64,000 nucleotides of DNA, from NCBI GenBank assembly GCA_021735655.1, contig JAIPGM010000001.1, forward strand, positions 256,001 through 320,000. Reading direction: 5' to 3'. Positions within the stretch are counted from its first letter, which is position 1. Each line of letters opens with the position of its first letter. Shown one piece after another: positions 1 through 25,886 of the stretch. The notes below the pieces were generated by a model that was not told the origin of the DNA, made no database searches, and saw nothing but the letters and a program-made list of their open reading frames with translations. A program made the position numbers and the translations under genes. The stretch is from Candidatus Omnitrophota bacterium. Its GTDB lineage: Bacteria > Omnitrophota > Gorgyraeia > Duberdicusellales > 4484-171.

Positions 1-640
1 GATAAGCAAAGAAATGAAGAAACGAAATATTAAAATTGAGTGGTCTTGTAGATCTAGGGTAGACGTAGTCGATGAGGATATAATTAAAGAGGCTAAATCT
101 ATAGGATGTAGACAGATATTGTTTGGGATAGAGTCGGCAGACCAACAAGTGCTACAAGGAATCCAAAAAAAAATAAGCATTGAAAAAGTTAAGGACAGCA
201 TTAAGCTTTGCAGGAAATACAATATTTTAACTATGGGTTTTTTCATGATCGGAAACCCCGGAGAAACCAGGGATAGCATAAATAGATCAATTAAATTCGC
301 AAAAGATCTAGGCTTGGATTTTGTGCAGTTTTGCAGGGCAATTGCTAAACCTAATTCAGGATTAAACGAGATACTGAAAAGTAAGACTGGTAAGGATTAT
401 TGGAGCGACTATATGCTTGGTAAGGAAAAGGAACGAAGGATGTTAACTCCTTGGGTTGACCTATCCCAAGAGGAGATAGAATATTATACAGTTAAAGCCT
501 ACCGTAGTTTTTACTTTCGACCTGTGCATATTCTCAAGATTACCTTAAAAGTAAAATCTTTTTCTGAATTTGTTAAGTATCTCCGGGTTGGATTACGGAT
601 GCTTTTTGGAAATAAAAAAGAATATGACCTTAAAAGATAA
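1..640 (+). CDS. B12-binding radical SAM protein, C-terminal part (5' end outside window)
   Basis: Reading frame is open from position 1 (no stop before the Met at 14). C-terminal motifs typical of class B rSAM enzymes: FGIESADQQVL, FMIGNPGETRDSI, LTPWVDLSQEEIEYY. Confidence 0.6.
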   Translation, partial: ISKEMKKRNIKIEWSCRSRVDVVDEDIIKEAKSIGCRQILFGIESADQQVLQGIQKKISIEKVKDSIKLCRKYNILTMGFFMIGNPGETRDSINRSIKFAKDLGLDFVQFCRAIAKPNSGLNEILKSKTGKDYWSDYMLGKEKERRMLTPWVDLSQEEIEYYTVKAYRSFYFRPVHILKITLKVKSFSEFVKYLRVGLRMLFGNKKEYDLKR

Positions 641-1616
641 ACTTCATTCTTTCAATTGTATGTTTAAAGTAAGGTTTTTAAAAAAAAGAATACCTTTGGC
701 GGTCCGTCTTCAGGTTACAAATCGCTGTACATTACAATGTAAATATTGCAATCTTTGGAACACAAAAACTGAAGAATTCACCAAAGAAGAAATATTTAGT
801 CTTATCGATCAATTAGCCGTTTTGGGGGCTAAAAGAATTTCTTTTAGTGGCGGAGAGCCGTTGCTAAGAAAAGATATAGGTGAGATCATAAGCTATTGCC
901 GAGAAAAAAGTATTTATCCTGAAATGAATTCCAATGGCACATTAGTGCCTGAAAGAGTAGATGAAATTAGTAACTTAGATTTTCTAAAATTGAGTCTAGA
1001 CGGGCCAAAAGAAATACACGATTTATTACGGGGCAAAGGTTCCTATGGACAGGTTCTAGCGGCTGCTGATTCTGTTTCTAAGAAGGGGATGAATTTTGGT
1101 TTTGCCACGACTTTAACAAAGTATAATATAGATCATCTTGATTTTCTTCTTGCTATAGCAGAAAAGTACAATACGATAGTGGCTTTTCAGCCTTTAAAGC
1201 AACTCTATCGAGGGATAAGTGACATTTCTAATTTAGCGCCATCTCAGGATAAATTTAAAAAGGCTATTGATAAGCTTATCCAAACTAAGAAATCCGGTAA
1301 TAGGCATATGCGTAATTCCCTTCGCGGACTTAAGCATATTTATAATTGGCCAAAATATAAAAAACTTAGATGCTGGTCGGGGCGGCTTTTTTGTATTATT
1401 AATGCCGATGGTGAGCTATTTCCTTGCGATAGAATTAATTATAATTCTCCGCTCCCGAATTGTAAAAAACAGGCCTTAAAGTTAGCTTTAGATCAGTTAC
1501 CTCAAGCGCATTGTTCGGGATGCGGTTTTTGTGGCTCTTTAGAGCTAAATTATCTTATGAATTTTAAACTCGATATTATTTCTTCGATAAGAAAGATATT
1601 AGATAAACAAGAATAA
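624..1616 (+). CDS. radical SAM/SPASM-domain protein, paralog A1
   Basis: KKRIPLAV..TNRCTLQCKYC (CxxxCxxC), FSGGEPLLRKDI, C-terminal Cys cluster (C..PCD...CSGCGFC). Start moved to ATG 624 (MTLKDK...) by alignment with paralog N-termini; the ORF track begins at 570. Confidence 0.8.
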   Translation: MTLKDKLHSFNCMFKVRFLKKRIPLAVRLQVTNRCTLQCKYCNLWNTKTEEFTKEEIFSLIDQLAVLGAKRISFSGGEPLLRKDIGEIISYCREKSIYPEMNSNGTLVPERVDEISNLDFLKLSLDGPKEIHDLLRGKGSYGQVLAAADSVSKKGMNFGFATTLTKYNIDHLDFLLAIAEKYNTIVAFQPLKQLYRGISDISNLAPSQDKFKKAIDKLIQTKKSGNRHMRNSLRGLKHIYNWPKYKKLRCWSGRLFCIINADGELFPCDRINYNSPLPNCKKQALKLALDQLPQAHCSGCGFCGSLELNYLMNFKLDIISSIRKILDKQE

Positions 1617-1626
1617 AGAAGGTTAT

Positions 1627-2916
1627 ATGGTTCAAAATAATTCTGGAAAGTGCTTAAAATTTATATACTCTAGCATAGCGTGTGTAATCGTTAGTTGTAT
1701 ATTATTTGTAACTTTAGAGGTAGGGGCTAGGTATTTATTTCCCAATAATGATCGACTTCAAGAGATACTTCGTGTTTTAGAGCAAGATTCAATACTTTTT
1801 TGGCGCCAGAGGGAAAATTTAGATACAGAATTTCAAAAGACAGGCCTAAAGACAAATTTTATCGGCTTAAGGGACGAGGTTCAGAATTTCGGCAAAAAAG
1901 CAAATCTGGTTAGGGTTATTTGCTTGGGTGCATCGCCGACATTTGGATGGGCAGTGGAAGGTGAAGACTCTTATCCCGACCAGCTAGAAAATATGCTTAA
2001 TCATAACCCCAAAGGCAAAAAAATTTACGAGGTCATAAATGCCGGAGTCATCGGATATAGTTCTTATCAGGGGTTATTATTTTTAAAAAATGAATTGCTC
2101 AGGTTTGATCCGGATATTATTACCATAGCTTATGGAGTTAATGATATGGACAAGCACAGATTCTATCGGAGCAATGGCAAAATGGATAAGGAATTGTATC
2201 CTAAGAATAGGAGCTCAGTTTTTCTGGAGAACATTTTTAATAATAGTAAATTAGTTAGAGTGTGCAGGGATTTTGTTTTATATCTTAAAGGTTACAGGAA
2301 AGATTTTTCAGGAATTAAAGGAAGTACTTTTTCTGATAGCGTAAGAGTATCGCCTCAAGATTATAAAAATAATCTCGATGAGATTTTAAAGATAGCTAAG
2401 AAGAAAGGAATAAAAATCATATTCATTAAAATGCCCATGGACCTATCTTTACCGGAACCAATATCAGACCAAAAAAAACTTAAAGCTGAGGAGTATTTAT
2501 CAATCGGACTAAAGCTCATTAAGGCGAGAGCTATAGACCAAGCGATTGCAAATCTTAAAAAGGCAGCTATAAATAATCCTTATTCAAGCGAAGTTTTTTA
2601 CTATTTAGGAATGTGTTATGAATTAGAAAAAGATTCCCTATCGGCAAAAGATTATTTTTTGAAAGCGAAGGAGGCTCAAGCCTATCAGCATAGGAAAGAT
2701 ATCCAAATTTATCAAGATCTCATGCAGCAATTAGCTGATACTAAAAATATACCTTGCCTGGATGCGATGCGTGCGGTTGTTGGAAGTAATAATAAGAGTT
2801 TTTTTAAAACACCAATCCACCCCAATGCTTCAGGTCATAAAATTATTGCCGGGCTATTATATGATGCTTTAACTGATAATGATTACTTATTAAACGATGA
2901 GGAAAATAGGAGGTAA
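1627..2916 (+). CDS. SGNH/GDSL-like hydrolase with N-terminal TM anchor and C-terminal TPR repeats
   Basis: N-terminal hydrophobic helix. Block I-like VICLGASPTFG, block III-like AYGVNDMD, block V-like HPNASGHKI. TPR-like LGMCYELEKDSLSAKDYFLKAKEA. Confidence 0.5.
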   Translation: MVQNNSGKCLKFIYSSIACVIVSCILFVTLEVGARYLFPNNDRLQEILRVLEQDSILFWRQRENLDTEFQKTGLKTNFIGLRDEVQNFGKKANLVRVICLGASPTFGWAVEGEDSYPDQLENMLNHNPKGKKIYEVINAGVIGYSSYQGLLFLKNELLRFDPDIITIAYGVNDMDKHRFYRSNGKMDKELYPKNRSSVFLENIFNNSKLVRVCRDFVLYLKGYRKDFSGIKGSTFSDSVRVSPQDYKNNLDEILKIAKKKGIKIIFIKMPMDLSLPEPISDQKKLKAEEYLSIGLKLIKARAIDQAIANLKKAAINNPYSSEVFYYLGMCYELEKDSLSAKDYFLKAKEAQAYQHRKDIQIYQDLMQQLADTKNIPCLDAMRAVVGSNNKSFFKTPIHPNASGHKIIAGLLYDALTDNDYLLNDEENRR

Positions 2917-2918
2917 TC

Positions 2919-4196
2919 GTGGATAAAAATAATACTCATAATACATCTAAGAAGACCAAATATCGTTTAAGGGCAAAAGTTTGCATAAGTTTGTTTAGTC
3001 TGTTTTTTTCTTTAATCGTACTGGAGGTAGTTTTAAGAATTATTGGGCATGTTTATTTTTCATCGCGACCAACGGCAGATGAAATATTTGCAGAATTCCA
3101 AAATAAACAAGGCGAAAGAGTAATTTTGTGTATTGGTGATTCTTACACAGTTGGGGCTAACGTAGGAGAGAAAAACGCCTGGCCTAGTAAATTGCAGATT
3201 ATGCTGAATGAGGGGTATGGTGAAGGTAAATTTCACGTTGTTAATAGCGGTGTATGCGAGATCAATTCTGCTCAGGTTCTAGAGATATTACCTCGCTACA
3301 TAGAACGTTACAAACCTGAGATAATTATTTTTTTGGTTGGAGTTGCTAACCAATTCAATTTTATTGGATTCGACAGGGAAGCAGAAACCTATTTGAAATT
3401 GCCTAACTTTGTTTATAAGCTCAGAACTTACAAGATGTTAAGGATTGTAGCTTTAAATATTCGGCAAAAGATTTTTAAAGATAGTTTCGAGCAAGATAGT
3501 ACTTTTGCTACTCAAGCATCGCTATCAAAGCGTCAATTGAGTAAAGCTCTTAATCCAGACGAGCACATATTTGCAGAAATAGCAGATGCTGATTATGACT
3601 TAATTGAGCACCTAAGGGCGGCAGGTGAGCACGATAAAGCTTCTGATTTGTTTAGAAAATCGGTGTTGGTCATTGACCCTAATTCAGAATTGTTTGCTTA
3701 TTATGGTCCTGAATTTATACTTGATATATATGACGATATGTATAATAGCAAAACCTTGAGTGTGGATGAGGTGCTTTCTGATTTTAGAAAAAATCTAGAA
3801 AGTAACCCTAGTCTGAAAGATGATAAGGCGTTCATGGACTATTATTCGTATTTACAAAGTATAGATAAATTCTATAAAGCAAAAAGAATTGAGCAGCAGC
3901 TGATAAATGATTTGGATAAGATTATTAGTGTGTGTCGAGACAATAATGTCAGAATTGTTATCCAAAATTACCCTTACCCTTATCCAATGATTGACAAGGT
4001 CATAGCCGATGTAGCTCTCAAATATTCTTTAACTTTAGTCGATCAAGGCAGAATTTTTAGTAGGTTAATTGCTAGGAATAAAAGAGAGATTTATTTTCAA
4101 GATGATCTTCATTGCACCCCTTTGGGGTACCGGATTATGGCAGAAAACATATATAATGTTTTTAAGCAAGAGGATATCGGCAAAATAGAACCATAG
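2919..4196 (+). CDS. SGNH/GDSL hydrolase-family protein, membrane anchored
   Basis: GTG start preceded by AGGAGG. N-terminal TM helix. Block I ILCIGDSYTVGANVG. C-terminal DDLHCTPLGYRI (DxxH block V). Confidence 0.55.
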   Translation: MDKNNTHNTSKKTKYRLRAKVCISLFSLFFSLIVLEVVLRIIGHVYFSSRPTADEIFAEFQNKQGERVILCIGDSYTVGANVGEKNAWPSKLQIMLNEGYGEGKFHVVNSGVCEINSAQVLEILPRYIERYKPEIIIFLVGVANQFNFIGFDREAETYLKLPNFVYKLRTYKMLRIVALNIRQKIFKDSFEQDSTFATQASLSKRQLSKALNPDEHIFAEIADADYDLIEHLRAAGEHDKASDLFRKSVLVIDPNSELFAYYGPEFILDIYDDMYNSKTLSVDEVLSDFRKNLESNPSLKDDKAFMDYYSYLQSIDKFYKAKRIEQQLINDLDKIISVCRDNNVRIVIQNYPYPYPMIDKVIADVALKYSLTLVDQGRIFSRLIARNKREIYFQDDLHCTPLGYRIMAENIYNVFKQEDIGKIEP

Positions 4197-4208: not shown

Positions 4209-4388
4209 ATGAAAAGAAAAACTAGTTTTAAACAGAATAAAGAGATTCTGTGGCAAATATTCTTTTTGATTAAAGAAAATAAGAAATGGTGGTTACTGCC
4301 TATATTTTTAGTATTAGTAATTTTAGGTTTATTTGTCAGCTTGACAGGAAATCAATCTATTTTGCCTGCAGTTTACGCTTTATTTTAA
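4209..4388 (+). CDS. small membrane protein (59 aa), DUF5989-like
   Basis: ORF just below the track cutoff: MKRKTSFKQNKEILWQIFFLIKENKKWWLLPIFLVLVILGLFVSLTGNQSILPAVYALF. It has the KKWWL..P single-TM pattern I recall for the DUF5989 family. GGAGG lies upstream. Confidence 0.45.
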   Translation: MKRKTSFKQNKEILWQIFFLIKENKKWWLLPIFLVLVILGLFVSLTGNQSILPAVYALF

Positions 4389-4403
4389 TATTACTGAAAT
4401 AAA

Positions 4404-4592
4404 ATGGCAACATTATTAAGAAAAGTTATTGCTTCTGTTGTTTGTTCTATAGCATTGCTATTGCCGCATAGACTTAGAATTATCTATTGCGAGATACTTG
4501 GCTGGTCGATGCAATTAATCTTTTGGGCTTATATTTCTATACTTAAATTTATAATAAAGTCACTTAAAGTGGGTAAAATTAAAACGCAATGA
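4404..4592 (+). CDS. small hydrophobic protein (62 aa), translationally coupled to the downstream PP-loop ATPase
   Basis: ORF whose stop overlaps the next start (ATGA at 4589-4592). Strongly hydrophobic. No recognisable domain. Confidence 0.3.
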   Translation: MATLLRKVIASVVCSIALLLPHRLRIIYCEILGWSMQLIFWAYISILKFIIKSLKVGKIKTQ

Positions 4593-5425
4593 AAGAGCTT
4601 GTTATTTTATACTCTGGCGGAACAGATTCAACCTGTGCCGCAGCTTTAATGGCTAAAGAGTTTGATAAGATCCATTTATTATCTTATACACGTTTTGGTG
4701 TATTTTCGATAGAAAATTCTAAAAAAAATGTCGAAAGGCTTGTAGAAAAATTCGGTAAAGATAAGTTTATTCATAAAATAATCGATGTAGATAAAATATT
4801 TCGAAAGGTATCGTATTCTAACTACATGCATAATCTTAGAAAACATAAGTTTGTTATGCTTACGATGTGTGGTTTGTGTAAAATAACTTTGCATATTCGT
4901 TCTTTAATGTATTGCTTAGACAATGATATAAAGTATGTGTGTGATGGTGTGGATAAAAGCATGGTTTTATTCCCAACCCACATGAGGGAGGTAGTTGGCT
5001 TAATCAAAGATATGTATTTTCGTTACGGAATTATCTATTCGTTGCCAGTATATGAATGTGGCACCCCTAGAAAAATAGGATATTTTGATAAATATAAATT
5101 AGATTTAAACATTTCAGAGCCAGATAATTTCGCTGTTGATTCTGAGTCGAACAATCCTACAACTGGTGAAATATTGCATAAAATGGGCATTTTTCCTTCG
5201 GATAATATTAAAGGAACAAAGCTTGATCATCAGATGCAGTATAGATGTTTTCAATTTATATTAACTTATATATTAGCACTTTGGTATTATTTGCCAAAAG
5301 ATGGTTATGAAAAATATAAGGATGTGTGTATAGAATTCTATAAAGAAAAGATAAATTATTTTTACCCTTTGTTAGATGAATATTTTAATAAAAAAGAAAG
5401 CAGTAGCCTAGCTAGATTGCGATAA
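4589..5425 (+). CDS. PP-loop ATP pyrophosphatase (adenine-nucleotide alpha-hydrolase superfamily)
   Basis: N-terminal SGGTDST PP-loop (SGGxDS), as in QueC/LarE/asparagine-synthetase-type enzymes. Cys cluster CGLCKITLH...C. Confidence 0.6.
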   Translation: MKELVILYSGGTDSTCAAALMAKEFDKIHLLSYTRFGVFSIENSKKNVERLVEKFGKDKFIHKIIDVDKIFRKVSYSNYMHNLRKHKFVMLTMCGLCKITLHIRSLMYCLDNDIKYVCDGVDKSMVLFPTHMREVVGLIKDMYFRYGIIYSLPVYECGTPRKIGYFDKYKLDLNISEPDNFAVDSESNNPTTGEILHKMGIFPSDNIKGTKLDHQMQYRCFQFILTYILALWYYLPKDGYEKYKDVCIEFYKEKINYFYPLLDEYFNKKESSSLARLR

Positions 5426-5486: not shown

Positions 5487-6464
5487 ATGAAAAATATTGA
5501 GAAAGTAAGATTAGCTTGCGCTTTACTGAGAATAAAATTATTGAAAAAAAGAATACCTTTGATAGTTAGCTGGTCGTTAACCTATAGGTGTAATCATAAA
5601 TGTTTATATTGTGGCATTTGGGAAAAAACTTCGGATGAATTAAGCAACGAACAAATTTTTTCACTTATCGACCAAATGGCGGCGGCAGGGACTCAACGGA
5701 TACATTTTACCGGTGGTGAGCCCTTATTAAGAGATGATATCGATAAGATTCTGATTTATTGTAAAAAAAAGGGAATAAGTACTGCATTGAATTCTAATGG
5801 GTTTTTGATTCCTGAAAAAATAAAATCCCTTATTAATCTCGACTTATTGTCGTTAAGCTTAGATGGGCCAGAAGCGGTGCATGATTCCATCAGAGGTAAG
5901 GGCTCTTACCAACAAGTAATGGGAGCGATAGAGGCAGCTAAGAAAAATAATATAAAAATAAAAATAATAACCGTATTGTCAAAGTTAAATCTAGGCCATA
6001 TTGATTTTATTTTGCATAAAGCGCAGGAATTGAAGATTCCGGTTACTTTCCAACCGACGACGATTTCGGTGCTTGAGGGAAGTAAGCCTAACTCCATTGC
6101 CGCTATCAAAGAAGAGTATAATCAAGCAGTTAGCTATTTAATAAAAGAAAAAAGAAAAAACAAATATATAGGTAATTCTTGTTCAGGATTAAAACATCTT
6201 TATGATTGGCCATCACCGTCAAAAATTTCCTGTGTAAATAGTCGCATTATTTGTCGTCTTGAACCTGATGGCCGTCTTTATGGATGCAATGATTATAAAA
6301 ATAAAGGCCTTGCGGTAGATTGCATAACCCTTGGCTTTAAAAAAGCTTTTGATAGCCTTGTGCCTTTTGCTTGTGATGAATGCTGGTGCGCTTCACTTGT
6401 AGAATTAAACTGTTTATTTGCCATAAAATTAGATACTGTTTTTAGTATTATCAAGTTAATTTAA
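5487..6464 (+). CDS. radical SAM/SPASM-domain protein, paralog A2
   Basis: KKRIPLIVSWSLTYRCNHKCLYC, FTGGEPLLRDDI, LSLDGPEAVHDSIRGKGSY, C-terminal CxxC/CWC cluster. Confidence 0.8.
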   Translation: MKNIEKVRLACALLRIKLLKKRIPLIVSWSLTYRCNHKCLYCGIWEKTSDELSNEQIFSLIDQMAAAGTQRIHFTGGEPLLRDDIDKILIYCKKKGISTALNSNGFLIPEKIKSLINLDLLSLSLDGPEAVHDSIRGKGSYQQVMGAIEAAKKNNIKIKIITVLSKLNLGHIDFILHKAQELKIPVTFQPTTISVLEGSKPNSIAAIKEEYNQAVSYLIKEKRKNKYIGNSCSGLKHLYDWPSPSKISCVNSRIICRLEPDGRLYGCNDYKNKGLAVDCITLGFKKAFDSLVPFACDECWCASLVELNCLFAIKLDTVFSIIKLI

Positions 6465-6473
6465 TGATATGAA

Positions 6474-7463
6474 ATGAAAAAAGCCGAACTATTAGCTGCT
6501 TATAATTTGTCAAAGGCAAAATTTTTTAGGAAGAAAATTCCTTTAGTGGTCGGATGGTCTGTTACTAATAGATGTAACTGGCACTGTGCTTATTGTACGC
6601 GATGGAGTGATCATTCAGAAGAGCTAGATACAAAACAGATTTATTCTATTTTGGACGAATTATTTCAGATGGGCACCTATAGTATTAATTTTACTGGGGG
6701 TGAACCATTGATAAGAGATGATATAGATAGAATAGTTTATTATGCAAAAAGAAAAGGCATCAACGTAACCATTAGCAGTAACGGTTCGTTAGTATCCCAA
6801 AAGATTAAAGAGATTCGTAAAGCTAACCCCCTTATTATTATAAGCTATGATGGGCCGCAAGATGTGCATGGTAGGCAGAGGCAAAAAGATTCTTATCAAT
6901 CTGTGTTGGATGCGATCGAGGCAGCAAAAAAATGTAATATTTTTGTAAAACTTCATACAGTCTTGACTAGGCATAATATAGAGCATGTTGATTCTATATT
7001 AGATTTTGCCAAAAAGTTGGACCTAACTGTGAATTTTGCTGTTGTCGAGTTCACTCCTTTTAGTAAAGAAGAAGCAGTTAAGACTTTATTGCCACCAAAA
7101 GATAAGTATAAATCAGCACTTAAATATCTCATATTTGAAAAAAGAAAAGGTAATAGTAGCGTTAGTAATTCACTTAGTGGTTTGCAATACCTTGAGCAGT
7201 GGCCTGAGTATAGAAAAATAAATTGCTGTGCTGGAAGAATTTACTGTCGGATTGAGTCCAATGGTGATGTTTTTCCTTGTGGCAATTTAATTTTTAAAAG
7301 CAAACCTCGTAACTGTTTAGAATTAGGATTTAAAAATGCTTTCGAGAATATTGAATTTAATGATTGTAAATCCTGTTGGTGTGATACCAGAATTGAGTTG
7401 AATCGTATATATTCTTTTAATTTAGGAGCTATTTTAGAGGTAAAAAGAACTTATAAATTATAA
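6474..7463 (+). CDS. radical SAM/SPASM-domain protein, paralog A3
   Basis: KKIPLVVGWSVTNRCNWHCAYC, FTGGEPLIRDDI, C-terminal C..PCG...CKSCWC. Confidence 0.8.
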   Translation: MKKAELLAAYNLSKAKFFRKKIPLVVGWSVTNRCNWHCAYCTRWSDHSEELDTKQIYSILDELFQMGTYSINFTGGEPLIRDDIDRIVYYAKRKGINVTISSNGSLVSQKIKEIRKANPLIIISYDGPQDVHGRQRQKDSYQSVLDAIEAAKKCNIFVKLHTVLTRHNIEHVDSILDFAKKLDLTVNFAVVEFTPFSKEEAVKTLLPPKDKYKSALKYLIFEKRKGNSSVSNSLSGLQYLEQWPEYRKINCCAGRIYCRIESNGDVFPCGNLIFKSKPRNCLELGFKNAFENIEFNDCKSCWCDTRIELNRIYSFNLGAILEVKRTYKL

Positions 7464-7466
7464 TAT

Positions 7467-8846
7467 ATGAAACAGATTGAAACCGAAGTGCTTATTCTTG
7501 GTGGCGGGTTGAGCGGGCTAATAGCCGCAGAGCTTTTATCTAAAGAAAGAAAAAAAATATTTATTTTAGAAAAAGAGTCTGTATCCGGTGGTTTAGCAAC
7601 GACAGTTCAATTCGAGGGCTTTAAGTTTGATATCGGAGGGCATAGAGTTTGTTTTAATAAGTCAGAGAATATAAATTATTTTAAAGATATCCTTGGTGAA
7701 AAAAAGTTTTTATTTTTGAAGAGAAAAAGCAAGATCATGTTTAACGATAGATATGTAAATTACCCCTTGAGCATCGGTACCGCATTTAATGTAAAAAAAA
7801 TGCATTTATTAAAAATAGCTTTTGATAGGCTTGGTGTGTATTTAAAAAGACAAAATAACTTGACTCCAGATAATTTTGAAGATTGGATAAAGATACATTA
7901 CGGGAAAACATTGTACAATATGTTTTTCAAGGAATATACAGAGAAAGTCTGGGGCAGGCCGTGTGGCGAGCTTTCTTCTAGCTTGGGGATAAGGAGAATG
8001 GGTAGTAAAAAACTATCAAAATTAACTAAATGTATTTCTAGGGGTGACGATGCTTTCAGGGAAAGCGCCCGCTCTTTTTATTACCCTCAAGAAGGAATGG
8101 AGGCGTTAATTAATGCTTTCGAGCAAAAATTAGGTACTAGTTGTAATATTCACAAAAATGTTCGAATCGGAAAAATTACCAGGTCTAACGGAGGGCTGAG
8201 CTGTTTATTGGCCAGCTCTAAAGGAGAACCTTACAAGATAAATTTTAAATATATCTTTTCTTCAATACCGCTTACAGAGCTTTTTAAAGCATTATCTATT
8301 GATGGGTTAACTTTGCCTCACAATTTAGAAAAAGGAATACAATATAGAAGTTTAGTTTTGGTAAGTATGATTGTTAATAAGAAAAATATCTCCCGGTGGC
8401 ATTGGTGTTATTTTCCTTCCCGGAAAGTTATATTTTCAAGATTACATGAGCCAAAGTTTTGGAGTAATGGTATGGCTGTAGATGAGAACAAGACATTGAT
8501 ATGTGCAGAAGTGTTTTGTAACTACAATGATTCATGTTGGCTTATGAATGATCGTGACCTAGCAATAGCAGTAAAAGAAGGTTTAAAGATTAATAAATTA
8601 ATCGATAGTGATCAAGATGTAGGTAATTTTTGCGTAAAGAGGATAAGATATGCCTATCCGCTACCAACTTATGAGTATAAAAAATATTTATCCATAGCTA
8701 AAAAGGCACTTAGTTCTTTTAATAATCTTTTTTTAATAGGAAGGAATGGAACCCATTCTTATTTTAATATGGAAGAATGCCTCGATGATGTGAAAGAGAA
8801 GGTTAAATTTTTACATGAAAATAGCAGTAATTATCCCCGTAACTAG
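7467..8846 (+). CDS. FAD/NAD(P)-dependent oxidoreductase (amine-oxidase / UDP-galactopyranose-mutase-like fold)
   Basis: N-terminal Rossmann dinucleotide motif LILGGGLSGLIAAELL followed by LEKE. Confidence 0.55.
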   Translation: MKQIETEVLILGGGLSGLIAAELLSKERKKIFILEKESVSGGLATTVQFEGFKFDIGGHRVCFNKSENINYFKDILGEKKFLFLKRKSKIMFNDRYVNYPLSIGTAFNVKKMHLLKIAFDRLGVYLKRQNNLTPDNFEDWIKIHYGKTLYNMFFKEYTEKVWGRPCGELSSSLGIRRMGSKKLSKLTKCISRGDDAFRESARSFYYPQEGMEALINAFEQKLGTSCNIHKNVRIGKITRSNGGLSCLLASSKGEPYKINFKYIFSSIPLTELFKALSIDGLTLPHNLEKGIQYRSLVLVSMIVNKKNISRWHWCYFPSRKVIFSRLHEPKFWSNGMAVDENKTLICAEVFCNYNDSCWLMNDRDLAIAVKEGLKINKLIDSDQDVGNFCVKRIRYAYPLPTYEYKKYLSIAKKALSSFNNLFLIGRNGTHSYFNMEECLDDVKEKVKFLHENSSNYPRN

Positions 8847-9852
8847 ACCAGAGCAGGCCGCTATCTGCGTAGATGCCCTTTCAAAACAAAGTTTTCTTAA
8901 TTCTGAAATTGAAATTATCCTCATTAAAGATAAGGATCAGGTTATAGAATTAAAAAAAACTGATATAAAGATAATTATTATAGAAGAGGAAAATCCGCAC
9001 CCTGCTTTTCGGAGAAATTTAGGAGTAAAGCTAACTAATGCAAGGATATTGGCTTTTTTGGATGATGATACTATACCTTGCTCAGAGTGGCTTAGCGAAG
9101 CAGTTCGATACATCGAGAAAGAATCGGTAGATGGTGTTTGTGGGCCTGAATTGCAGTCGCAAAATAACTTATCACTGGGTTATACTCTGGCCGGGGCAGC
9201 TAATGAGACTTTTTTTGTAGAAGGAGTTGAGCGGATGAATGTTACTAGTGAGGGGCCAGTAAGATTTTATAATATTCGTTTATGTAATGTGATTATGAGG
9301 CGTAAAGTGTGGGAGGCCGTGGGAGGATTCAATGAAATAGCTAATTATCACATTGATGATATCGAGTTTTTTTATTTGGCTTGTAACAAAAAGTACAGGT
9401 TCCATTATATACCGAAGATGCTAGTTCACCATCGGCCAGAACCATTTCCTTTTAGATACCTAAAAAAGAAGTTTAACGAGCGGTTCTATACGGGCATGAA
9501 TGCTATGATGTTTAGGGAGATTTATTCATTGATTCCTCAGATATGGTTTGTATATTTACTATATCCGATCATAATTCTTATTTTTTTATTATTTTTTAGT
9601 AATAGCATGTATATCATGCCATTTTTAGCAATTTATTTTGGGCTAATTTTGTGGTTTTCCTACCCTTGGTTTCGGAAAAATAAAAAGATTTTTATTCTTT
9701 TGCCGATAGTATTTATATCGACGCATATAGTTGAGCTAATAGGTTTTTTAGCAGGTACTTTTTATTTTTTTGTTAACAGAAATTATGGGGATGTAACCGT
9801 TAGGATTAAACAGGGAAGATTAGAAAAATGCTCCGAAAGTTTGACGTTATAA
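8815..9852 (+). CDS. family-2 glycosyltransferase with C-terminal multi-TM domain (cassette copy 1)
   Basis: MKIAVIIPVTRP, LAFLDDDT (DxD-like), VGGFNE motif shared with the GT2 at 21075. Hydrophobic C-terminal third. Confidence 0.6.
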   Translation: MKIAVIIPVTRPEQAAICVDALSKQSFLNSEIEIILIKDKDQVIELKKTDIKIIIIEEENPHPAFRRNLGVKLTNARILAFLDDDTIPCSEWLSEAVRYIEKESVDGVCGPELQSQNNLSLGYTLAGAANETFFVEGVERMNVTSEGPVRFYNIRLCNVIMRRKVWEAVGGFNEIANYHIDDIEFFYLACNKKYRFHYIPKMLVHHRPEPFPFRYLKKKFNERFYTGMNAMMFREIYSLIPQIWFVYLLYPIIILIFLLFFSNSMYIMPFLAIYFGLILWFSYPWFRKNKKIFILLPIVFISTHIVELIGFLAGTFYFFVNRNYGDVTVRIKQGRLEKCSESLTL

Positions 9853-10904
9853 AATTTATTAAGGGATACTCTAAAAAAAGTCCGCCTACTTATGTTGTTT
9901 TTTTTGTCACTGCTCGATGCAATTTAAAATGCAAAATGTGTTTTTATTGGAAACGCATAGAGAATGCCAAGGCGGAGGAAGAGCTAAATTTAAATGAAAT
10001 AGAAGCTATATCTCGGTCTTTTGATTGGATTATGAATCTTGCTATTTCTGGCGGAGAACCTTTCTTGCGTGACGATCTTGACCAAATTTGTTTTATTTTT
10101 TATAAAAACAATCACTTGCGATTTATGAATATTCCTACAAATGGAAGTTTTCCGGCAAAAATAAGTTTGATGACTGAAAAAATATTGCGACTATGCAAAA
10201 AGTCTACGGTTACAATTGAATTATCTATAGATGGCATCGGAGAAGCTCATGATCATATCAGAGGGGTAGGAGGAAGCTTTGATAAACTTGAAGATACATA
10301 TTGGAGGCTATCAAAGCTAAAGAAAAGGTATGGTAATCTACGATTGGCGGCAGCAACAACTTTTTCTTATTACAACCAAAACCAGCTTAAGGAGATCATT
10401 TCGTATATAAAGCAGAAAAATTTTTTAGATGATTTTACTATATCAACGGTTCATGGTAATCCTAGGGATCCTATGGCGAAGAGTTTCGGGTTAGATAAGT
10501 ATACCGAGGCTATGAATTTACTTTATAAAGATAAATTATGTAGCAAAAAGGCTTTTGAAAGAGGGCTTCGTGCTTTAAGAAAATCAGTCACTCAAGAAGT
10601 TGTTAACGTGATAAAATATGGAAGGTTAAGGTCTCCTTGTACAGCAGGGAATAAAATAATTGTCATAGATGAAACGGGGAATGTTTTTCCTTGTGAGCCA
10701 ATTAGCGAAAGAATAGGCAGCCTTCGTGATGATGGTTATGATATAAAAAAAATAATTTACTCTAAAAAAAGATACGATTTTGAGAAAAAATACAAAATAA
10801 ATTCTGAGTGTAGCTGTAATTGGGAGTGCGCCATCCTTAATAATGTAATTTATAATCCGAAAAATTTGCCATATTTGATTAGAAATTGGTTTATTGGTTG
10901 TTAA
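9828..10904 (+). CDS. radical SAM protein with Cys-rich C-terminal (SPASM/twitch-like) extension, paralog B1
   Basis: FFVTARCNLKCKMCFYW (CxxxCxxC), SGGEPFLRDD, C-terminal FPCEP...CSCNWEC. Confidence 0.75.
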   Translation: MLRKFDVIKFIKGYSKKSPPTYVVFFVTARCNLKCKMCFYWKRIENAKAEEELNLNEIEAISRSFDWIMNLAISGGEPFLRDDLDQICFIFYKNNHLRFMNIPTNGSFPAKISLMTEKILRLCKKSTVTIELSIDGIGEAHDHIRGVGGSFDKLEDTYWRLSKLKKRYGNLRLAAATTFSYYNQNQLKEIISYIKQKNFLDDFTISTVHGNPRDPMAKSFGLDKYTEAMNLLYKDKLCSKKAFERGLRALRKSVTQEVVNVIKYGRLRSPCTAGNKIIVIDETGNVFPCEPISERIGSLRDDGYDIKKIIYSKKRYDFEKKYKINSECSCNWECAILNNVIYNPKNLPYLIRNWFIGC

Positions 10905-13569: not shown

Positions 13570-14586
13570 ATGAAAAAATTAAAAATATTGTTATCTAAAT
13601 ATGCGTCATTGCTGAGGGCGACATTTTATAGCCGGAGATTACCTAACGCCTTTAAATCTTTGCTTTCTTATATGTTTCGAAGGCCTAAGGCGTGGGGTTT
13701 GCCGCCAATTGTCCAGATAGAACCGACCACTAATTGCAATCTGAAATGTGCCCTGTGCCTTACTGGTAGAGGTCAATTAAAGAGGCTTAAAGGAGATATG
13801 TCTTTTGATTTTTTTAAAGAAATAATAAACCAGCTGGAAGATATCATAATTTACTTAGTTATGTATAATTTAGGCGAACCTTTATTAAATAAAGAAATAT
13901 TCAAAATGATAGAGTATGCAAAGATGAAGAAGATTTTTATTAGACTCAGTACCAATGGTGCATTTTTGAGCAAGCAAGACATAGAGAATTTAGTTAGATT
14001 TAAAGTAGACGAGGTGATTATTTCTCTTGATTGTGCAAATTCAGAGATATACGAAAAGTATAAGGGGAGTGATGGTTTCAAAAAAGTTATTGAAAATACA
14101 GGTTTGCTAATTAAACAGCGGGGAGACAACTTGAAGCCTTTCGTTGATTTGCAAGTTTTAGCCATGAGAGGTATTGAGAGGGACATTATTCATTTTAAGG
14201 AATTAGCACGGAATCTGGGGGTTGATCGGGCCTTAATCAAGAAGTTGCGTGTTAACTTTCCAGGAATTCCTTCAGATGAAAGTTTTTTGCCTAAAAATTC
14301 AAGATATGTTCGAAAAGCATATCGAAAAAAAACTTACAAAAGCAATAATTGCTATAAACTGTGGTTATCAACGCTTATTTTGTGGGATGGGGTGGTTGTT
14401 CCTTGTTGTTTTGATATGGAGGGGCATTATTCTTTAGGAAGTATATTGCAGGTGGAATTGAAGCAAATTTGGAATAGCGATAAGTATAAATTATTTCGAA
14501 AGAATGCATCGAAGGGTGCGGGTAAAACATCTTTGTGCAAAGATTGCAGTTTGGGTTGTTTATCGGGGGATTTATCGCTTTTGTGA
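13570..14586 (+). CDS. radical SAM/SPASM-domain protein, type C
   Basis: IEPTTNCNLKCALCLTG (CxxxCxxC). C-terminal VVPCCFD...CKDCSLGC. Confidence 0.75.
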   Translation: MKKLKILLSKYASLLRATFYSRRLPNAFKSLLSYMFRRPKAWGLPPIVQIEPTTNCNLKCALCLTGRGQLKRLKGDMSFDFFKEIINQLEDIIIYLVMYNLGEPLLNKEIFKMIEYAKMKKIFIRLSTNGAFLSKQDIENLVRFKVDEVIISLDCANSEIYEKYKGSDGFKKVIENTGLLIKQRGDNLKPFVDLQVLAMRGIERDIIHFKELARNLGVDRALIKKLRVNFPGIPSDESFLPKNSRYVRKAYRKKTYKSNNCYKLWLSTLILWDGVVVPCCFDMEGHYSLGSILQVELKQIWNSDKYKLFRKNASKGAGKTSLCKDCSLGCLSGDLSLL

Positions 14587-16229: not shown

Positions 16230-17837
16230 ATGACTACAGCGCGATATTCAAAAAATACAGAAAGACTTTTGTTGGGTATTTTGGCGGTGATTTCTCTTTT
16301 GGTTACTTTATATTGCCAGTACCCTTTGTTGACAAATAAATATGCGATTAACGATGATGTGCGCCAAGAAATCTACTTTTATAGTAATTACAATAATAGT
16401 AATCTTTTTCGGAACGATCCAATAACTGATTATTACCGAAGTTGGAATCCTTCGGGATTAAATACATTTTATTATTTTGCAAGCCTGTTTCATGATCCGA
16501 TAGGGGTTACAAAAATATTACCTTTTTTTCTTTGTGTGTTTTCGGCGCTTTACATGTTCGGGATAGGTAAGATATTGAAAGGTAATCTTTGTGGATTCTT
16601 AAGCGGCCTTTTGTTTATTTCTTTAGCCTGGAGCAGAGAGGCTTTTGAAGTTTTTGGTACCGGCAATGGAGAAGATTTTGCGGTAGTTTTCTGTGTGATG
16701 TTTTTGTATTATCTATTGAAAAAAGATTTACTTAAGTCTAGTATAACTTTGATTTTGCTTTCACTTTTCCACCCGTCCTTACTTCTAATTTGTCTATTGA
16801 CTCAATTTTTAGTTTTGATTATAGATTGCCTGAAACATAATAAATCAGCCTCAAAGAAACTATTGGGTTTTATGATAACCTTAATAATAATATTTTTAAT
16901 ATTGTGGCCAAAATATTTATCTGGTCAAATAAAGCTTACTAAATTAAAAGAGATGAAGGCCATGGAGGAGTTTTATCCCGGAGGGAGAAAACCACTTTTT
17001 TTTGAGTCTAGTTATGAACGCTGGACTAACTACGAGAGTGGTTTGGCAATAGATTATCCTTTGAGATGGTTGTTTGGGGTCGCTTCGATCGCCCTCCTTG
17101 TTCTCAGAAAGAAAATTTTGAAGGTTATGCCACCGCAGCTGTTTTATTTTATATTTATTTCTTTTGTATTGTTTGGGATCGCAAATTTATTCATGTATTC
17201 GCTATACGGTCCTTCAAGATATGTTAGATATCCGTTACCTTTATTTTTAATTTTTATTATAACCTTAGGTGTTAGTGAGATTACACAAAAGATAAAGGTG
17301 TCAGCAGGCAGGATAGCACTTATAACAGGGTTTATCGCCTTGATTGGTTTATCCTTTGCGCCTAAGCTACATGCTCATTATGTCGTAGCTCCCTATCCCG
17401 GCCTTTATAGGTTTTTATCAACGCTTCCTGAAAGTAGTCTTATTGCCGGACACCCGGTTTTAATGGATGATGTGCCTACTTTTGCCAAAAGAATAGTGTT
17501 TATTAGTCAAGAAACCTCTATGCCTTATTACGCTAATTTTTATCCTTTCATTAAGAAGCGCACCTATGATTTTTTCCGGGCCTATTATTCTAATGATTTG
17601 CGAGAAATTGATGATTTTTTTAAAAAGTATAATATAACCCACATGGTTGTCCAAAAAAGTAATTTTTCCGAGGACTACATAAAAAGATCTCAATTTTATT
17701 TTAATCCTTTTAATGCTTACGTTGAAGATATTATAAAGAATAGAAAGAAATTTGCCTTAATGGACGTCCCTCAAGATAGCAGATTGTTTGAGACCGAAGA
17801 TGTTTTTGTGATCGCAAAGGATAGCCTTGTTTTCTAA
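16230..17837 (+). CDS. polytopic membrane protein, GT-C-like
   Basis: Many TM helices. Acidic loop INDDVRQE after TM1. C-terminal soluble domain. Confidence 0.4.
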   Translation: MTTARYSKNTERLLLGILAVISLLVTLYCQYPLLTNKYAINDDVRQEIYFYSNYNNSNLFRNDPITDYYRSWNPSGLNTFYYFASLFHDPIGVTKILPFFLCVFSALYMFGIGKILKGNLCGFLSGLLFISLAWSREAFEVFGTGNGEDFAVVFCVMFLYYLLKKDLLKSSITLILLSLFHPSLLLICLLTQFLVLIIDCLKHNKSASKKLLGFMITLIIIFLILWPKYLSGQIKLTKLKEMKAMEEFYPGGRKPLFFESSYERWTNYESGLAIDYPLRWLFGVASIALLVLRKKILKVMPPQLFYFIFISFVLFGIANLFMYSLYGPSRYVRYPLPLFLIFIITLGVSEITQKIKVSAGRIALITGFIALIGLSFAPKLHAHYVVAPYPGLYRFLSTLPESSLIAGHPVLMDDVPTFAKRIVFISQETSMPYYANFYPFIKKRTYDFFRAYYSNDLREIDDFFKKYNITHMVVQKSNFSEDYIKRSQFYFNPFNAYVEDIIKNRKKFALMDVPQDSRLFETEDVFVIAKDSLVF

Positions 17838-24982: not shown

Positions 24983-25133
24983 AGGCCTTTCGACTTAAAG
25001 GTTAGGGAAATTTTTTAAGAAATACGATTAAAAAAGTATTTGATTCTATATAGAATATGATAAAATTAAGGGATAAAGAAGTGTGTTTTTATATTAGATG
25101 CACAATTTACAATGCTAAAGGGAGGTGTCCAAA

Positions 25134-25886
25134 ATGATTAGGACCATGGAAACTTTATGTTTTGCGGCTTTGATTTTTGCAATAACATTTGCTTTTACTC
25201 CATTAGCTTTAGCTTATGATTTAAGTAAGTATTACCCTTTAAATGAAGGTGATAGTTGGGAGTATTTAACAAGCGGAATAGGCTACGTTGAGGGTGGAGC
25301 AGATAAGGCAGAATTTTCCGATATGATTGAAGTAGATAAAATAGAATCAAAAGAATCTATTTCCGGTAAAAGGACCATGGTAAAGGTTTCGGGAGCCTTA
25401 GAGGAAAAAGAATGTTTGGCTGTAGACTCAGAAGGACTAAAACTGTACAAGTTAATAGATGGTCCAGGTGGTTATGATATATTTACCCCGCCGTTCATGC
25501 AGTTGGCAAATCTTGCAGTTGGAGAGAGTAAAACTTTCTTAAGCAATGCAATCGGGTATGGTGATCGCTCAAGTGAAGGAGCCAGACTGAATACAAATAC
25601 GATAACATTGGAATCAGTGGAAAGAGTAGAAGTTCCCGCAGGATTATTTGATGATTGCCTTAAATTTACGTCGACGGGTGAAAGAGCCTACGCAGATGGC
25701 AATTATGAAAATATTGAGTCTACCGTTTGGCTTGCTTTAGGGGTAGGTGTAGTTAAGGCTGATTATATTTATATCGAACATGATTTTTCTTCAGGCGAGG
25801 ATAGTACTACTACCAACAAGCGAAATTTGGTTTCAGCAAAGGTAAATGGTCAACAAATCGGAACTCCAAAGGAAAGTCAAGAATAA
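25134..25886 (+). CDS. secreted hypothetical protein (signal peptide)
   Basis: ATG 25134 with AAGGGAGG 9 nt upstream. Signal-peptide-like N-terminus with AYD cleavage-like site. Confidence 0.4.
   Translation: MIRTMETLCFAALIFAITFAFTPLALAYDLSKYYPLNEGDSWEYLTSGIGYVEGGADKAEFSDMIEVDKIESKESISGKRTMVKVSGALEEKECLAVDSEGLKLYKLIDGPGGYDIFTPPFMQLANLAVGESKTFLSNAIGYGDRSSEGARLNTNTITLESVERVEVPAGLFDDCLKFTSTGERAYADGNYENIESTVWLALGVGVVKADYIYIEHDFSSGEDSTTTNKRNLVSAKVNGQQIGTPKESQE

Follow-up and report, generated by a model that had tools for sequence, protein, structure and literature searches.

What function is served by two small hydrophobic ORFs that are coupled to a PP-loop ATPase and lie between genes for SGNH hydrolases and radical-SAM proteins? 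This locus was analysed within a 64-kb window (i.e. the whole stretch of Omnitrophota DNA under study) and by comparison with 83 related loci. An earlier note on this DNA had described three ORFs between SGNH hydrolases and radical-SAM proteins, with a 15-nt gap between the first two ORFs and an overlap between the ORF2 stop and the PP-loop start. This layout was confirmed (Table 1), with two SGNH/GDSL proteins upstream, two radical-SAM proteins downstream, 15 nt separating the ORF1 stop (4386-4388) from the ORF2 ATG (4404) and an ATGA at 4589-4592 being common to the ORF2 TGA and the PP-loop ATG. ORF1 starts 12 nt past the stop of the SGNH2 gene and has a strong Shine-Dalgarno sequence (i.e. 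GGGAGG) 8 nt 5' of its ATG. The NCBI record of this MAG contains ORF1 (P0155) under the name 'DUF5989 family protein'; ORF2 (P0113) was called in the Logan gene calls only and is absent from the NCBI annotation. Scans for promoters and terminators across 1-12 kb returned chance-level counts (47 versus 50.6 expected and 9 versus 6.4 expected, respectively) and were uninformative on operon limits. The reading favoured here, to which an even chance is given, is that the locus encodes two coupled units, namely ORF2 with the PP-loop enzyme and an SGNH protein with DUF5989, of a conserved and hitherto undescribed cell-envelope modification module that would operate by the full mechanism set out below.

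Table 1. Positions of the two microprotein genes, the PP-loop gene and their neighbours in the window
Feature	Position	Strand	Family, match or motif
B12-type radical-SAM protein, C-terminal fragment, cut by window edge	14-640	+	phmmer vs L001 B12-rSAM, 1.4e-13
Further rSAM paralogue, 5' of SGNH genes	570-1616	+	Pfam Radical_SAM
SGNH/GDSL protein 1 (SGNH1), 429 aa, N-terminal anchor and TPR insert	1627-2916	+	Lipase_GDSL_2, 64 bits
SGNH/GDSL protein 2 (SGNH2), 425 aa, N-terminal signal-anchor helix, GDS and DxxH blocks	2919-4196	+	Lipase_GDSL_2, 46 bits
ORF1, DUF5989 single-pass microprotein (predicted topology), 59 aa, ATG start	4209-4388	+	Pfam PF19451
ORF2 ('SM'), hydrophobic microprotein, 62 aa, ATG start	4404-4592	+	New family
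YcfA-like PP-loop ATP pyrophosphatase, 278 aa, ATG start	4589-5425	+	SGGTDS, C94xxC97, H102, C109, C220
Radical-SAM protein, ~325 aa, first of two paralogues	5487-6464	+	Pfam Radical_SAM, 107 bits
Radical-SAM protein, ~325 aa, second of two paralogues	6474-7463	+	Pfam Radical_SAM, 96 bits

ORF1, ORF2 and the PP-loop ORF are all genuine genes. In 82 of the 83 related loci, an ORF2 homologue was found immediately 5' of the PP-loop gene (E values down to 1e-32), and the homologues of DUF5989 form at least 7,962 clusters, so the ORFs are far beyond chance. Homologues of both small ORFs were found across phyla, and not missing from relatives as supposed by the non-coding alternative raised in the earlier note. 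The omission of ORF2 by NCBI in this MAG, together with the lack of an obvious Shine-Dalgarno sequence before it, would be expected if ORF2 were an artefact (i.e. either the N-terminal part of the PP-loop gene split off by a frameshift or an ORF that arose by chance in AT-rich DNA). This explanation has a negligible probability and is refuted by the retention of the split, overlapping pair in ~74 independent genomes of varied phyla and GC content at ~40% protein identity.

The tie between ORF2 and the PP-loop enzyme was apparent in the structure of the genes. In 60 of 84 genes, the end of ORF2 and the start of the PP-loop gene shared 1-20 nt, most commonly as a 4-nt ATGA, and a gap of ≤34 nt was present in 14 further genes of these 84. 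P0091, P0102, P0287 and P0307 are fusion proteins with ORF2 at the N-terminal end of the PP-loop enzyme, and more distant PP-loop relatives carry N-terminal hydrophobic extensions with 'LPxRxR'. Loci carrying ORF2 were found in at least six phyla, i.e. in Omnitrophota, Elusimicrobiota, Bdellovibrionota, Myxococcota, Patescibacteria and one Flavobacteriaceae MAG. The conserved portion of ORF2 is hydrophobic (Kyte-Doolittle 19-residue maximum of 1.99) with the motif LLPxRLR..E.LGW..Q, while the C-terminal tails are variable K/E-rich linkers. There was no match to ORF2 in Pfam or NCBIfam, hence it is not SxtJ, a profile for which a check had been suggested. In an AF2 model of the P0091 fusion (pTM 0.85), the ORF2 part formed two helices (residues 3-24 and 27-58; pLDDT 82-90) from an alignment in which just two sequences cover the N-terminal part (A7); this alignment was used because MAFFT had scattered the free ORF2 homologues across the PP-loop domain (A5, A6). 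Long stop-free ORFs with the ORF2 motif in the GC-rich loci L029, L063 and L084 were judged to be probably stop-poor frames rather than fusions to upstream genes. From the conserved adjacency and fusions, ORF2 is proposed to be an obligate partner of the PP-loop enzyme, as its membrane subunit or anchor.

The suggestion of a membrane-tethered activation trio was therefore upheld in part. Adjacency, overlaps and fusions speak strongly for ORF2 and the PP-loop enzyme but not for DUF5989, which tracks SGNH genes; 34 of 70 copies have an SGNH gene as the upstream neighbour and 18 of 70 are directly 5' of an ORF2 homologue. The position of DUF5989 varied, with this gene located downstream of the PP-loop gene or separated from it by a B12-rSAM gene. 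Likewise, conservation of the trio next to radical-SAM genes held for the placement of ORF2 upstream of the PP-loop gene but not for radical-SAM proximity (within 10 kb), which was limited to 43 of the 83 loci. ORF2 and the PP-loop gene are one unit and SGNH and DUF5989 are another, rather than a single trio.

The PP-loop protein contains SGGTDS at residues 9-14, as well as Cys94-x2-Cys97, His102, Cys109 and Cys220, in accordance with the SGGxDS motif and Cys cluster reported previously. The presence of SGGxDS in a Rossmann-like alpha/beta fold places this protein in the PP-loop superfamily. Among 80 members of the family, SGGxDS, D119-G120, K208, Q217 and C220 were invariant. Conservation of the other residues was high (Cys94 in 71, Cys97 in 69, His102 in 79, Cys109 in 79 and Cys220 in 80), with the whole CxxC present in 69 members and absent in 11 (~14%). 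Clustered at 50% identity, the clade has 685 representatives (E ≤ 1e-3), and these span at least six phyla. YcfA was the best match by a wide margin, followed by ThiI, QueC, LarE, TtuA and NcsA, and the similarity to YcfA extended over the full length in both fold and sequence, as expected of a YcfA-family protein. Membership of the QueC family was rejected as the scores, obtained over the N-terminal 30-68 residues only, were below both curated cutoffs (20.6 bits versus 22 for Pfam PF06508 and 19.2 versus 150.3 for NCBIfam TIGR00364).

A link to sulfur was provided by the related loci. In about a third of these (24-28 of 83), the PP-loop gene is followed by genes for p120 (i.e. a 'CCG'-motif membrane protein with an invariant N-terminal CCG) and a SufS-type desulfurase. 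The SufS assignment was made with an E value of 6.5e-85, and the catalytic R[SA]GxHC loop was present in 21 of 24 of the desulfurases. The p120 protein had no match in Pfam or NCBIfam and was fused to a PP-loop protein in P0312. Given the recurrence of this pair after the PP-loop gene, ATP-dependent thiolation at the membrane is the best guess for the activity of the PP-loop enzyme. A phmmer search of the window detected no SufS or p120 homologue, and so the sulfur link in this organism comes through homology to other loci only. The lack of the pair in the window is one of several observations that would suit an amidotransferase or amidine-forming enzyme of glycan biosynthesis (WbuX/PseA- or AsnB-type), with ORF2 as a mere membrane anchor and with no sulfur chemistry in this organism. 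The locus is inside an O-antigen-like island, AsnB-like genes occur in five related loci and the PP-loop protein is matched weakly by the NCBIfam model TIGR03573 (WbuX; E 1.4e-4, far under the cutoff) as well as by NAD synthase and QueC. WbuX/PseA-type N-acetyl-sugar amidotransferases (TIGR03573) are, moreover, PP-loop enzymes from O-antigen/glycan loci. The match to these enzymes is, however, N-terminal and sub-threshold only (21 bits, cutoff 203), the similarity does not extend into the C-terminal half and, unlike the PP-loop enzyme of this locus, they have no microprotein partner. Amidation is considered distinctly unlikely, and thiolation is retained as the working proposal for the PP-loop enzyme.

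The second unit was examined through its microprotein. As the earlier note had suspected, ORF1 is DUF5989-like, with an HMM search using Pfam PF19451 giving 53.2 bits (cutoff 27; E 3.2e-14) and an alignment to profile positions 4-49 of 49 that runs through the final residue. ORF1 contains NKKWWLLP, a K/R-rich N-terminus and one TM helix (Kyte-Doolittle maximum of 2.63). DUF5989 is predicted to be single-pass with an N-in/C-out orientation, the topologies of both DUF5989 and ORF2 being predictions from hydropathy and the positive-inside rule alone. Conservation across the DUF5989 family is strongest at the extreme C-terminus (P-x-I-Y-x-x-F-COOH), exceeding that of the TM helix, with Tyr(-4) and Phe(-1) present in all 120 of 120 database hits and kept by 63 of the 70 copies from the loci. 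The C-terminal hexapeptide of ORF1 is AVYALF. Position -6 is Ala in this copy and in the SGNH-linked subtype (AIYALF), and Phe only in the subtype linked to carbamoyltransferase (CT) genes (FIYTLF). The statement in the earlier note that DUF5989 genes sit near carbamoyltransferases in other genomes was borne out by two loci, L089 (order CT-SxtJ-DUF5989, with SGNH absent) and L001 (order DUF5989-70aa-CT, in which the 70-aa ORF had no match in Pfam or NCBIfam). Also as previously stated, no carbamoyltransferase homologue was found in the 64-kb window with phmmer. Searches seeded with DUF5989 returned to the SGNH-DUF5989-rSAM-SM-PP-p120-SufS system. No papers were found in a literature search on DUF5989 and DUF7411, and no publication was found on the ORF2 family or DUF5989.

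By analogy with DltX, DUF5989 is proposed to be a partner of the SGNH protein. Conservation that peaks at the C-terminus, and not in the TM helix, is ill-fitting for a simple tether, and the C-terminal motif matches a proven acyl-Tyr shuttle motif in both position and spacing. These two properties count against an alternative in which DUF5989 is a structural partner only (i.e. a tether, assembly factor or regulator) of SGNH, carbamoyltransferase/SxtJ or the PP-loop enzyme and in which no group is carried covalently on the C-terminal Tyr. Clustering of all neighbouring ORFs in the 83 loci identified no conserved MBOAT-like or AT3 acyltransferase, so there is no known route for loading the periplasmic Tyr of DUF5989, and no MBOAT was present among the window proteins scanned against Pfam. 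The absence of such a loading protein favours a structural role, as do the association of DUF5989 with CT-SxtJ where SGNH is absent (L089), the 18 copies directly before ORF2 and the lack of sequence-level homology to DltX; Pfam DltX did not match ORF1, for which just DUF5989 and two chance hits were obtained at E ≤ 1. A purely structural role is somewhat unlikely, and the DltX-like partnership with the SGNH protein is carried forward.

The genes around the two units were also inspected. SGNH2 exhibited a Kyte-Doolittle value of 2.62 at residues 21-39 behind a positively charged N-terminus. SGNH1 matched the SGNH proteins of loci L001 and L005 in phmmer searches (1e-63 to 1e-77) and, as judged by this similarity, is the ortholog of the module-adjacent SGNH protein in other phyla; the SGNH cluster was present in 61-63 of the 83 loci. 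PDB sequence searches with SGNH1 and SGNH2 produced generic TesA-like or TPR matches only, with no relation to DltD/PatB. The module is surrounded by same-strand GT2, GT4, WecA-like, Wzy_C and GT-C genes, and as a whole sits in an O-antigen-like glycan island. Radical-SAM genes are abundant in the window, with at least eight copies, and a DUF5989-B12 rSAM-SM-PP-loop gene order is common in other loci; the two ~325-aa radical-SAM proteins had no NCBIfam model at its cutoff. This abundance nearby, and the fact that thioamidation is within reach of PP-loop-type enzymes, would accord with small ORFs that are RiPP-like precursor peptides modified by the adjoining radical-SAM and PP-loop enzymes, a role as radical-SAM substrates having been raised in the earlier note. 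Such an identity was rejected and is highly improbable, as radical-SAM genes are not obligate (none within 10 kb of the module in 40 of 83 loci), several lineages encode ORF2 as a fusion with the enzyme and both peptides consist of a conserved hydrophobic helix and fixed motif with no leader/core layout. DUF5989, moreover, contains a TM helix, and its >7,900 homologous clusters include some in non-rSAM contexts.

A mechanism can be proposed for the favoured reading of two units, in which membrane topology, sulfur chemistry, substrate identity and a shuttling function for the Tyr are what we infer. In the first unit, ORF2 would form a hydrophobic helical hairpin of ~60 aa that serves as a detachable N-terminal membrane subunit of the YcfA-like PP-loop ATP pyrophosphatase, the two proteins being made by translational coupling via the ATGA overlap. 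At the cytoplasmic face of the membrane, the PP-loop enzyme would act on a substrate close to the membrane, probably a lipid or lipid-linked glycan from the adjoining O-antigen-like pathway, and would spend ATP on the adenylation of a carbonyl or carboxyl oxygen of this substrate. The enzyme would then, most likely, exchange this oxygen for sulfur, which may be delivered as a persulfide or through a Cys/His-bound metal or Fe-S site. In the second unit, the periplasmic SGNH protein, anchored in the membrane, would transfer or remove an acyl-type group on an envelope polymer, with the C-terminal Tyr of DUF5989 probably docked in its active site.

A bolder and decidedly doubtful extension of this mechanism would make DUF5989/SxtK microproteins the carrier in a widespread, MBOAT-independent and Dlt-like group transfer across the inner membrane. 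The C-terminal Tyr of DUF5989 would be loaded by an adenylate-forming enzyme of the cytoplasm together with its small membrane partner (PP-loop enzyme with ORF2 or, elsewhere, carbamoyltransferase with SxtJ). DUF5989 would then pass the acyl, thioacyl or carbamoyl group on to an SGNH transferase in the periplasm, by which an envelope glycan is decorated. Such a carrier route, if true, would provide a first function for SxtJ, SxtK and a microprotein family of >7,900 clusters. The sxtK-type ORFs have been without explanation since 2008, and the match between the DUF5989 C-terminus and the acyl-Tyr motif provides a concrete hypothesis. ORF2 represents an unannotated microprotein family that appears to be an obligate, and sometimes fused, subunit of an uncharacterised PP-loop clade; split membrane subunits of this kind are often missed by gene callers and NCBI. 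The SufS-type desulfurase and 'CCG' membrane protein of related loci point to a sulfur relay that is bound to the membrane and acts on components of the envelope, a chemistry that is undescribed there. Some of the module-bearing Bdellovibrionota may be cultivable, which would make genetics feasible.

Comparison with known systems places the PP-loop enzyme nearest to YcfA, which with YcfC is the thioamide-forming PP-loop enzyme of 6-thioguanine synthesis in Erwinia amylovora (PDB 9kq6; PMC12494993). YcfA needs no metal and uses free L-Cys, which, like the loss of CxxC from ~14% of the present family, counts against the favoured reading. The YcfA residues for the GTP and L-Cys substrates (i.e. 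Y128, Q129, E134 and Q135), which align to S, M, T and H in the PP-loop protein, are not kept in the present family, whereas a CxxC, C220, a C-terminal helical extension of ~60 residues and an obligate microprotein subunit are added. YcfC is a Cys-less C-S lyase, whereas related loci supply a genuine SufS-type desulfurase with a catalytic Cys as the PLP partner (none being present in the window), and the context is an envelope glycan island rather than an antimetabolite cluster. Unlike ThiI, MnmA, TtuA/NcsA and LarE, the PP-loop protein has no THUMP/PUA RNA-binding domains, matches no family model at its cutoff and is predicted to be membrane-associated via its microprotein, so that the substrate is presumably not tRNA. 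The [4Fe-4S] thiolases (TtuA/NcsA/LarE) have three conserved Cys residues, a CxxC plus a further C, as cluster ligands; in the family studied here, CxxC is present in 69 of 80 members and C220 in all 80, leaving 11 members without CxxC.

SxtI-SxtJ-SxtK of the saxitoxin clusters (i.e. an O-carbamoyltransferase and two small ORFs), which has widespread homologues, resembles the present locus in that DUF5989 is the small ORF after CT and SxtJ (PF19588) in L089. The plans are parallel, with a small hydrophobic ORF coupled to a putative adenylate-forming cytoplasmic enzyme, plus DUF5989. The window differs in having no carbamoyltransferase or SxtJ and in pairing DUF5989 with an SGNH protein. For this second unit the closest counterpart is DltX, a microprotein of teichoic-acid D-alanylation, whose FXYXXF motif (FIYNEF) and docking into the SGNH protein DltD have been described (PMC12148441, PMC13653941). 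There is no detectable homology between DUF5989 and Pfam DltX, the locus has no MBOAT (DltB/PatA) or carrier protein, motif position 1 is Ala and not Phe in SGNH-linked DUF5989 proteins, and the SGNH proteins are generic by sequence, unlike DltD. Like DltX, however, DUF5989 is ~50-60 aa and predicted to be single-pass and N-in/C-out, with a short tail that ends in [F/A]-I-Y-x-x-F-COOH, the C-terminal ends being ...NQAKFIYNEF for DltX and ...GNQSILPAVYALF for the window DUF5989. The tail (A/F-I/V-Y-A/T-L-F) has the same geometry as the FXYXXF of the DltX/MBOAT (e.g. PatA) acyl shuttle and, as for DltX and DltD, the DUF5989 gene lies in a locus for an envelope polymer, beside the gene for an SGNH protein with a membrane anchor.

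The three ORFs, at exactly the positions given in an earlier note made from the sequence alone, are listed with the surrounding features in the table. The ATG of ORF1 is preceded 8 nt ahead by a GGGAGG Shine-Dalgarno sequence; a 15-nt spacer separates ORF1 from ORF2, whose stop shares an ATGA overlap with the start of the PP-loop gene. ORF1 matched Pfam DUF5989 (53.2 bits, cutoff 27) up to its last residue, bearing out its earlier description as DUF5989-like, and is a 'DUF5989 family protein' under NCBI annotation; ORF2 is in Logan gene calls only (P0113). Pfam searches placed two SGNH/GDSL proteins upstream and two radical-SAM proteins downstream of the ORFs. As the note had stated, no carbamoyltransferase was present, a homologue search of the window finding none.

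Features of the three-ORF region and of the surrounding glycan island
Feature	Position	Strand	Details
ORF1	4209-4388	+	59 aa, ATG start
ORF2	4404-4592	+	62 aa, ATG start
PP-loop gene	4589-5425	+	278 aa, ATG start
Glycosyltransferases	570 to ~29,300		four GT2, plus GT1/GT4
WecA/MraY-type Glycos_transf_4 protein	570 to ~29,300		
Wzy_C protein	570 to ~29,300	-	the one - strand gene
PMT_2 GT-C protein	570 to ~29,300		
Polysaccharide deacetylase, YdjC, DegT aminotransferase	570 to ~29,300		
LPG_synthase_TM protein	570 to ~29,300		
Radical-SAM proteins	570 to ~29,300		at least eight, including those in the next two rows
Five paralogous radical-SAM proteins	570-1616, 5487-6464, 6474-7463, 19078-20058, 20039-21049		~325 aa each
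Three more SPASM radical-SAM proteins	9828-10904, 13570-14586, 22058-23164		
FAD amine-oxidase/UDP-galactopyranose-mutase-like protein	7467-8846		Amino_oxidase and GLF matches
Polytopic membrane protein	16230-17837		535 aa, no Pfam family
Protein	25125-25886		253 aa, no Pfam family

No Pfam or NCBIfam family matched ORF2. Loci of relatives (80 fetched, plus a few more via exact-protein look-ups) came from Omnitrophota, Elusimicrobiota and Endomicrobiaceae, Bdellovibrionota (Halobacteriovorax, Bacteriovoracaceae), Myxococcota, Patescibacteria and others. An HMM made from four ORF2-like sequences detected a homologue in 82/83 non-redundant loci, nearly always directly 5' of the PP-loop gene on the same strand. 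For 60 of 84 PP-loop genes the ORF2-type stop overlapped the PP-loop start by 1-20 nt, the 4-nt ATGA being the most frequent class (19 genes), and 14 more had a gap of <=34 nt; the remainder were mostly second copies of tandem paralogues. Family members of 52-70 aa exhibit ~40% identity across phyla, with the consensus ...C..A.LLPxRLR....E.LGW..Q..Y, and fall into three subtypes, which vary in step with the PP-loop subtypes. Conservation across phyla excluded ORF2 being an artefact. Four homologous proteins (P0091, P0102, P0287 and P0307) have an N-terminal enzyme domain in place of the free microprotein, and more distant PP-loop relatives often carry a hydrophobic N-terminal extension of 75-125 residues with the same 'LPxRxR' signature. 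These fusions and the conserved translational coupling make ORF2 a predicted subunit of the PP-loop enzyme, so that the two genes are a single unit. Hydropathy indicated one probable membrane helix in ORF2 (residues 2-20, Kyte-Doolittle 1.99) and, after it, an amphipathic one; the PP-loop protein had no TM segment. The AF2 model of the P0091 fusion (pLDDT 84, pTM 0.85) has helices at 3-24 and 27-58, with pLDDT 82-90 over the first 40 residues, and a disordered linker to the catalytic domain. Tandem PP-loop paralogues follow a short ORF2 subtype, ending '...LGW.AQLVPP..Y' with an acidic tail replacing the second helix, in L039, L040, L061, L045, L063 and L065, all loci from binned MAGs with doubtful-looking labels of Enterobacterales or Rickettsiales.

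The earlier note had also raised the small ORFs as possible radical-SAM substrates. This RiPP-like reading is disfavoured: 40/83 loci had no radical-SAM protein within 10 kb, some lineages have ORF2 and the enzyme as one fused protein, and each of the two peptides is a membrane helix whose motifs are fixed.

The PP-loop protein contains SGGTDS at residues 9-14 and gave only sub-threshold N-terminal matches in Pfam/NCBIfam (DUF7411, QueC, NAD synthase and WbuX). It has 105 close homologues, and a library of 1.84 billion proteins yielded 685 representatives at E <= 1e-3 and 142 at E <= 1e-30. The best match by sequence (E 1.4e-11) and, using a confident AF2 model (pLDDT 88.9, pTM 0.89), by structure (Foldseek E 2e-10, TM 0.64/0.80) was YcfA, the PP-loop enzyme making the 6-thioguanine thioamide, in which the guanine C6 carbonyl is adenylated and L-Cys added, the PLP C-S lyase YcfC then leaving the sulfur (PMC12494993). 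As the GTP/L-Cys-binding residues Y128, Q129, E134 and Q135 of YcfA are replaced by S, M, T and H, the substrate is predicted to differ from that of YcfA. Among 80 family members SGGxDS, D119-G120, K208, Q217 and C220 were invariant, C109 and H102 were present in 79 and C94xxC97 in 69-71, indicating that the 'Cys cluster' noticed earlier is real and conserved.

Downstream of the PP-loop gene, 24-28/83 loci encode p120, a ~120-aa membrane protein, and then a class-V aminotransferase. The aminotransferase is SufS/CsdA-type (E 6.5e-85 against PDB SufS entries) and in 21/24 cases retains the loop R[SA]GxHC with the catalytic cysteine, so that it is predicted to be a true persulfide-forming desulfurase, unlike YcfC. 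No Pfam family covers p120, whose N-terminus bears an invariant CCG motif and in which 'SP..SG...FN' is also conserved; it occurs at L003:8840-9199 and in 18 further loci (e.g. L028:10842-11204), always between the PP-loop gene and the desulfurase, and in P0312 is part of a fusion with a PP-loop protein. p120 may be a persulfide relay bound to the membrane. The recurring arrangement and the structural neighbours make ATP-dependent thiolation the most likely chemistry, by analogy; for the window organism this is indirect, since a homologue search found both p120 and SufS missing from the window. The main rival, amidation as by WbuX, AsnB or NAD synthetase, is considered less likely.

DUF5989 belongs with SGNH proteins. 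Of 70 copies in the loci, 34 had an SGNH hydrolase gene directly upstream and three a carbamoyltransferase gene, and the downstream gene was ORF2 in 18 and a B12-type radical-SAM gene in 13. Three architectures recur, SGNH-DUF5989-B12 rSAM-ORF2-PP, (SGNH)-DUF5989-ORF2-PP-p120-SufS and ORF2-PP-SGNH-DUF5989; SGNH and DUF5989 occur together in 53/83 loci, a figure that is too low, given the many truncated contigs. Look-ups from two 'AIYALF'-type DUF5989 proteins led to the same SGNH-DUF5989-rSAM-(ORF2)-PP-p120-SufS-SGNH-PMT system, and one 'FIYTLF'-type protein lay in carbamoyltransferase-SxtJ(PF19588)-DUF5989, the sxtI/J/K arrangement, whose small ORFs sxtJ and sxtK are still called uncharacterised (PMC2885083). 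In locus L001, a hydrophobic 70-aa ORF (L001:2937-3149) with a DUF5989 copy ahead overlaps by its end the start of a carbamoyltransferase (L001:3149-4930), an arrangement identical to that of ORF2 with the PP-loop gene; the 70-aa ORF had no Pfam match and was rejected as SxtJ.

The N-terminus of DUF5989 is rich in K/R; a single strong TM helix (Kyte-Doolittle 2.63) and a 14-residue tail ending L-P-[A/F]-[I/V]-Y-[A/T]-[L/I]-F-COOH follow. Tyr -4 and Phe -1 were present in 63/70 locus copies and 120/120 best database matches; only P31, P53, Y56, F59 and the initiator Met were invariant in a diverse alignment. In both window SGNH proteins the N-terminal signal-anchor helix (Kyte-Doolittle 2.4-2.6) is flanked by positive charges, and the Ser block (GAS/GDS) and the His block (HP/DxxH) are preserved. 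DltX, a 49-aa single-pass microprotein of teichoic-acid D-alanylation, carries D-Ala on the invariant Tyr of an extracytoplasmic C-terminal hexapeptide FXYXXF (FIYNEF) that docks into DltD, an SGNH protein; the motif (FIYANF) also stands at the C-terminus of other MBOAT proteins themselves, for example PatA, which hands acetyl to the SGNH protein PatB (PMC12148441, PMC13653941). DUF5989 resembles DltX in size, in predicted topology, in where Tyr and Phe stand and how they are spaced at the very C-terminal end, and in being encoded beside an SGNH protein with a membrane anchor in an envelope-polymer locus. It differs in two respects: neighbouring-protein clusters and Pfam revealed no MBOAT or AT3 protein conserved across loci, and Pfam DltX gave no sequence-level match. 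DUF5989 therefore probably works like DltX by analogy, membership of the DltX family not being claimed; a non-catalytic, purely structural role is a serious, if less probable, rival. That DUF5989/SxtK is the carrier in a Dlt-like transfer route which needs no MBOAT and is fed by adenylate-forming enzymes coupled to the membrane is a speculative extension given little weight.

The genes from 570 to ~29,300, nearly all on the + strand with minimal spacing, encode an O-antigen-like pathway, and related loci also contain GT2, GT9 and GT-C genes. From these surroundings, the module is best read as a putative system that decorates a lipid-linked glycan or a lipid of the envelope. A sharp functional boundary separates this ~30-kb envelope-glycan island (1-31900, GC 0.30-0.37) from housekeeping genes (31939-64000, GC 0.36-0.39; AsxRS, LolC/D-like FtsX-ABC, IlvE, McsB, ClpC, RadA, CysRS, MetRS, MtnA-like and Alr), among which lies a PAS/GAF histidine kinase. 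The radical-SAM density is unusual for the inside of a glycan locus; the five paralogues match one another at 1e-70 to 1e-90, have a Cys-rich C-terminal region and reached the cutoff of no NCBIfam model (best PTO1314, mycofactocin and AhbC/D-like). The mutase-like protein type also occurs near the module in three related loci (L010, L034 and L038).

A literature search found no publication mentioning DUF5989 or DUF7411, and neither ORF2 nor p120 falls into a curated family. Taken singly, the parts are of familiar kinds, namely a PP-loop sulfur/adenylate enzyme, and an SGNH protein accompanied by a microprotein with a Tyr tail; not described is the combination, in which a split membrane subunit is obligate, a membrane protein with a 'CCG' motif is the putative relay, and a DltX-like tail occurs with no MBOAT.
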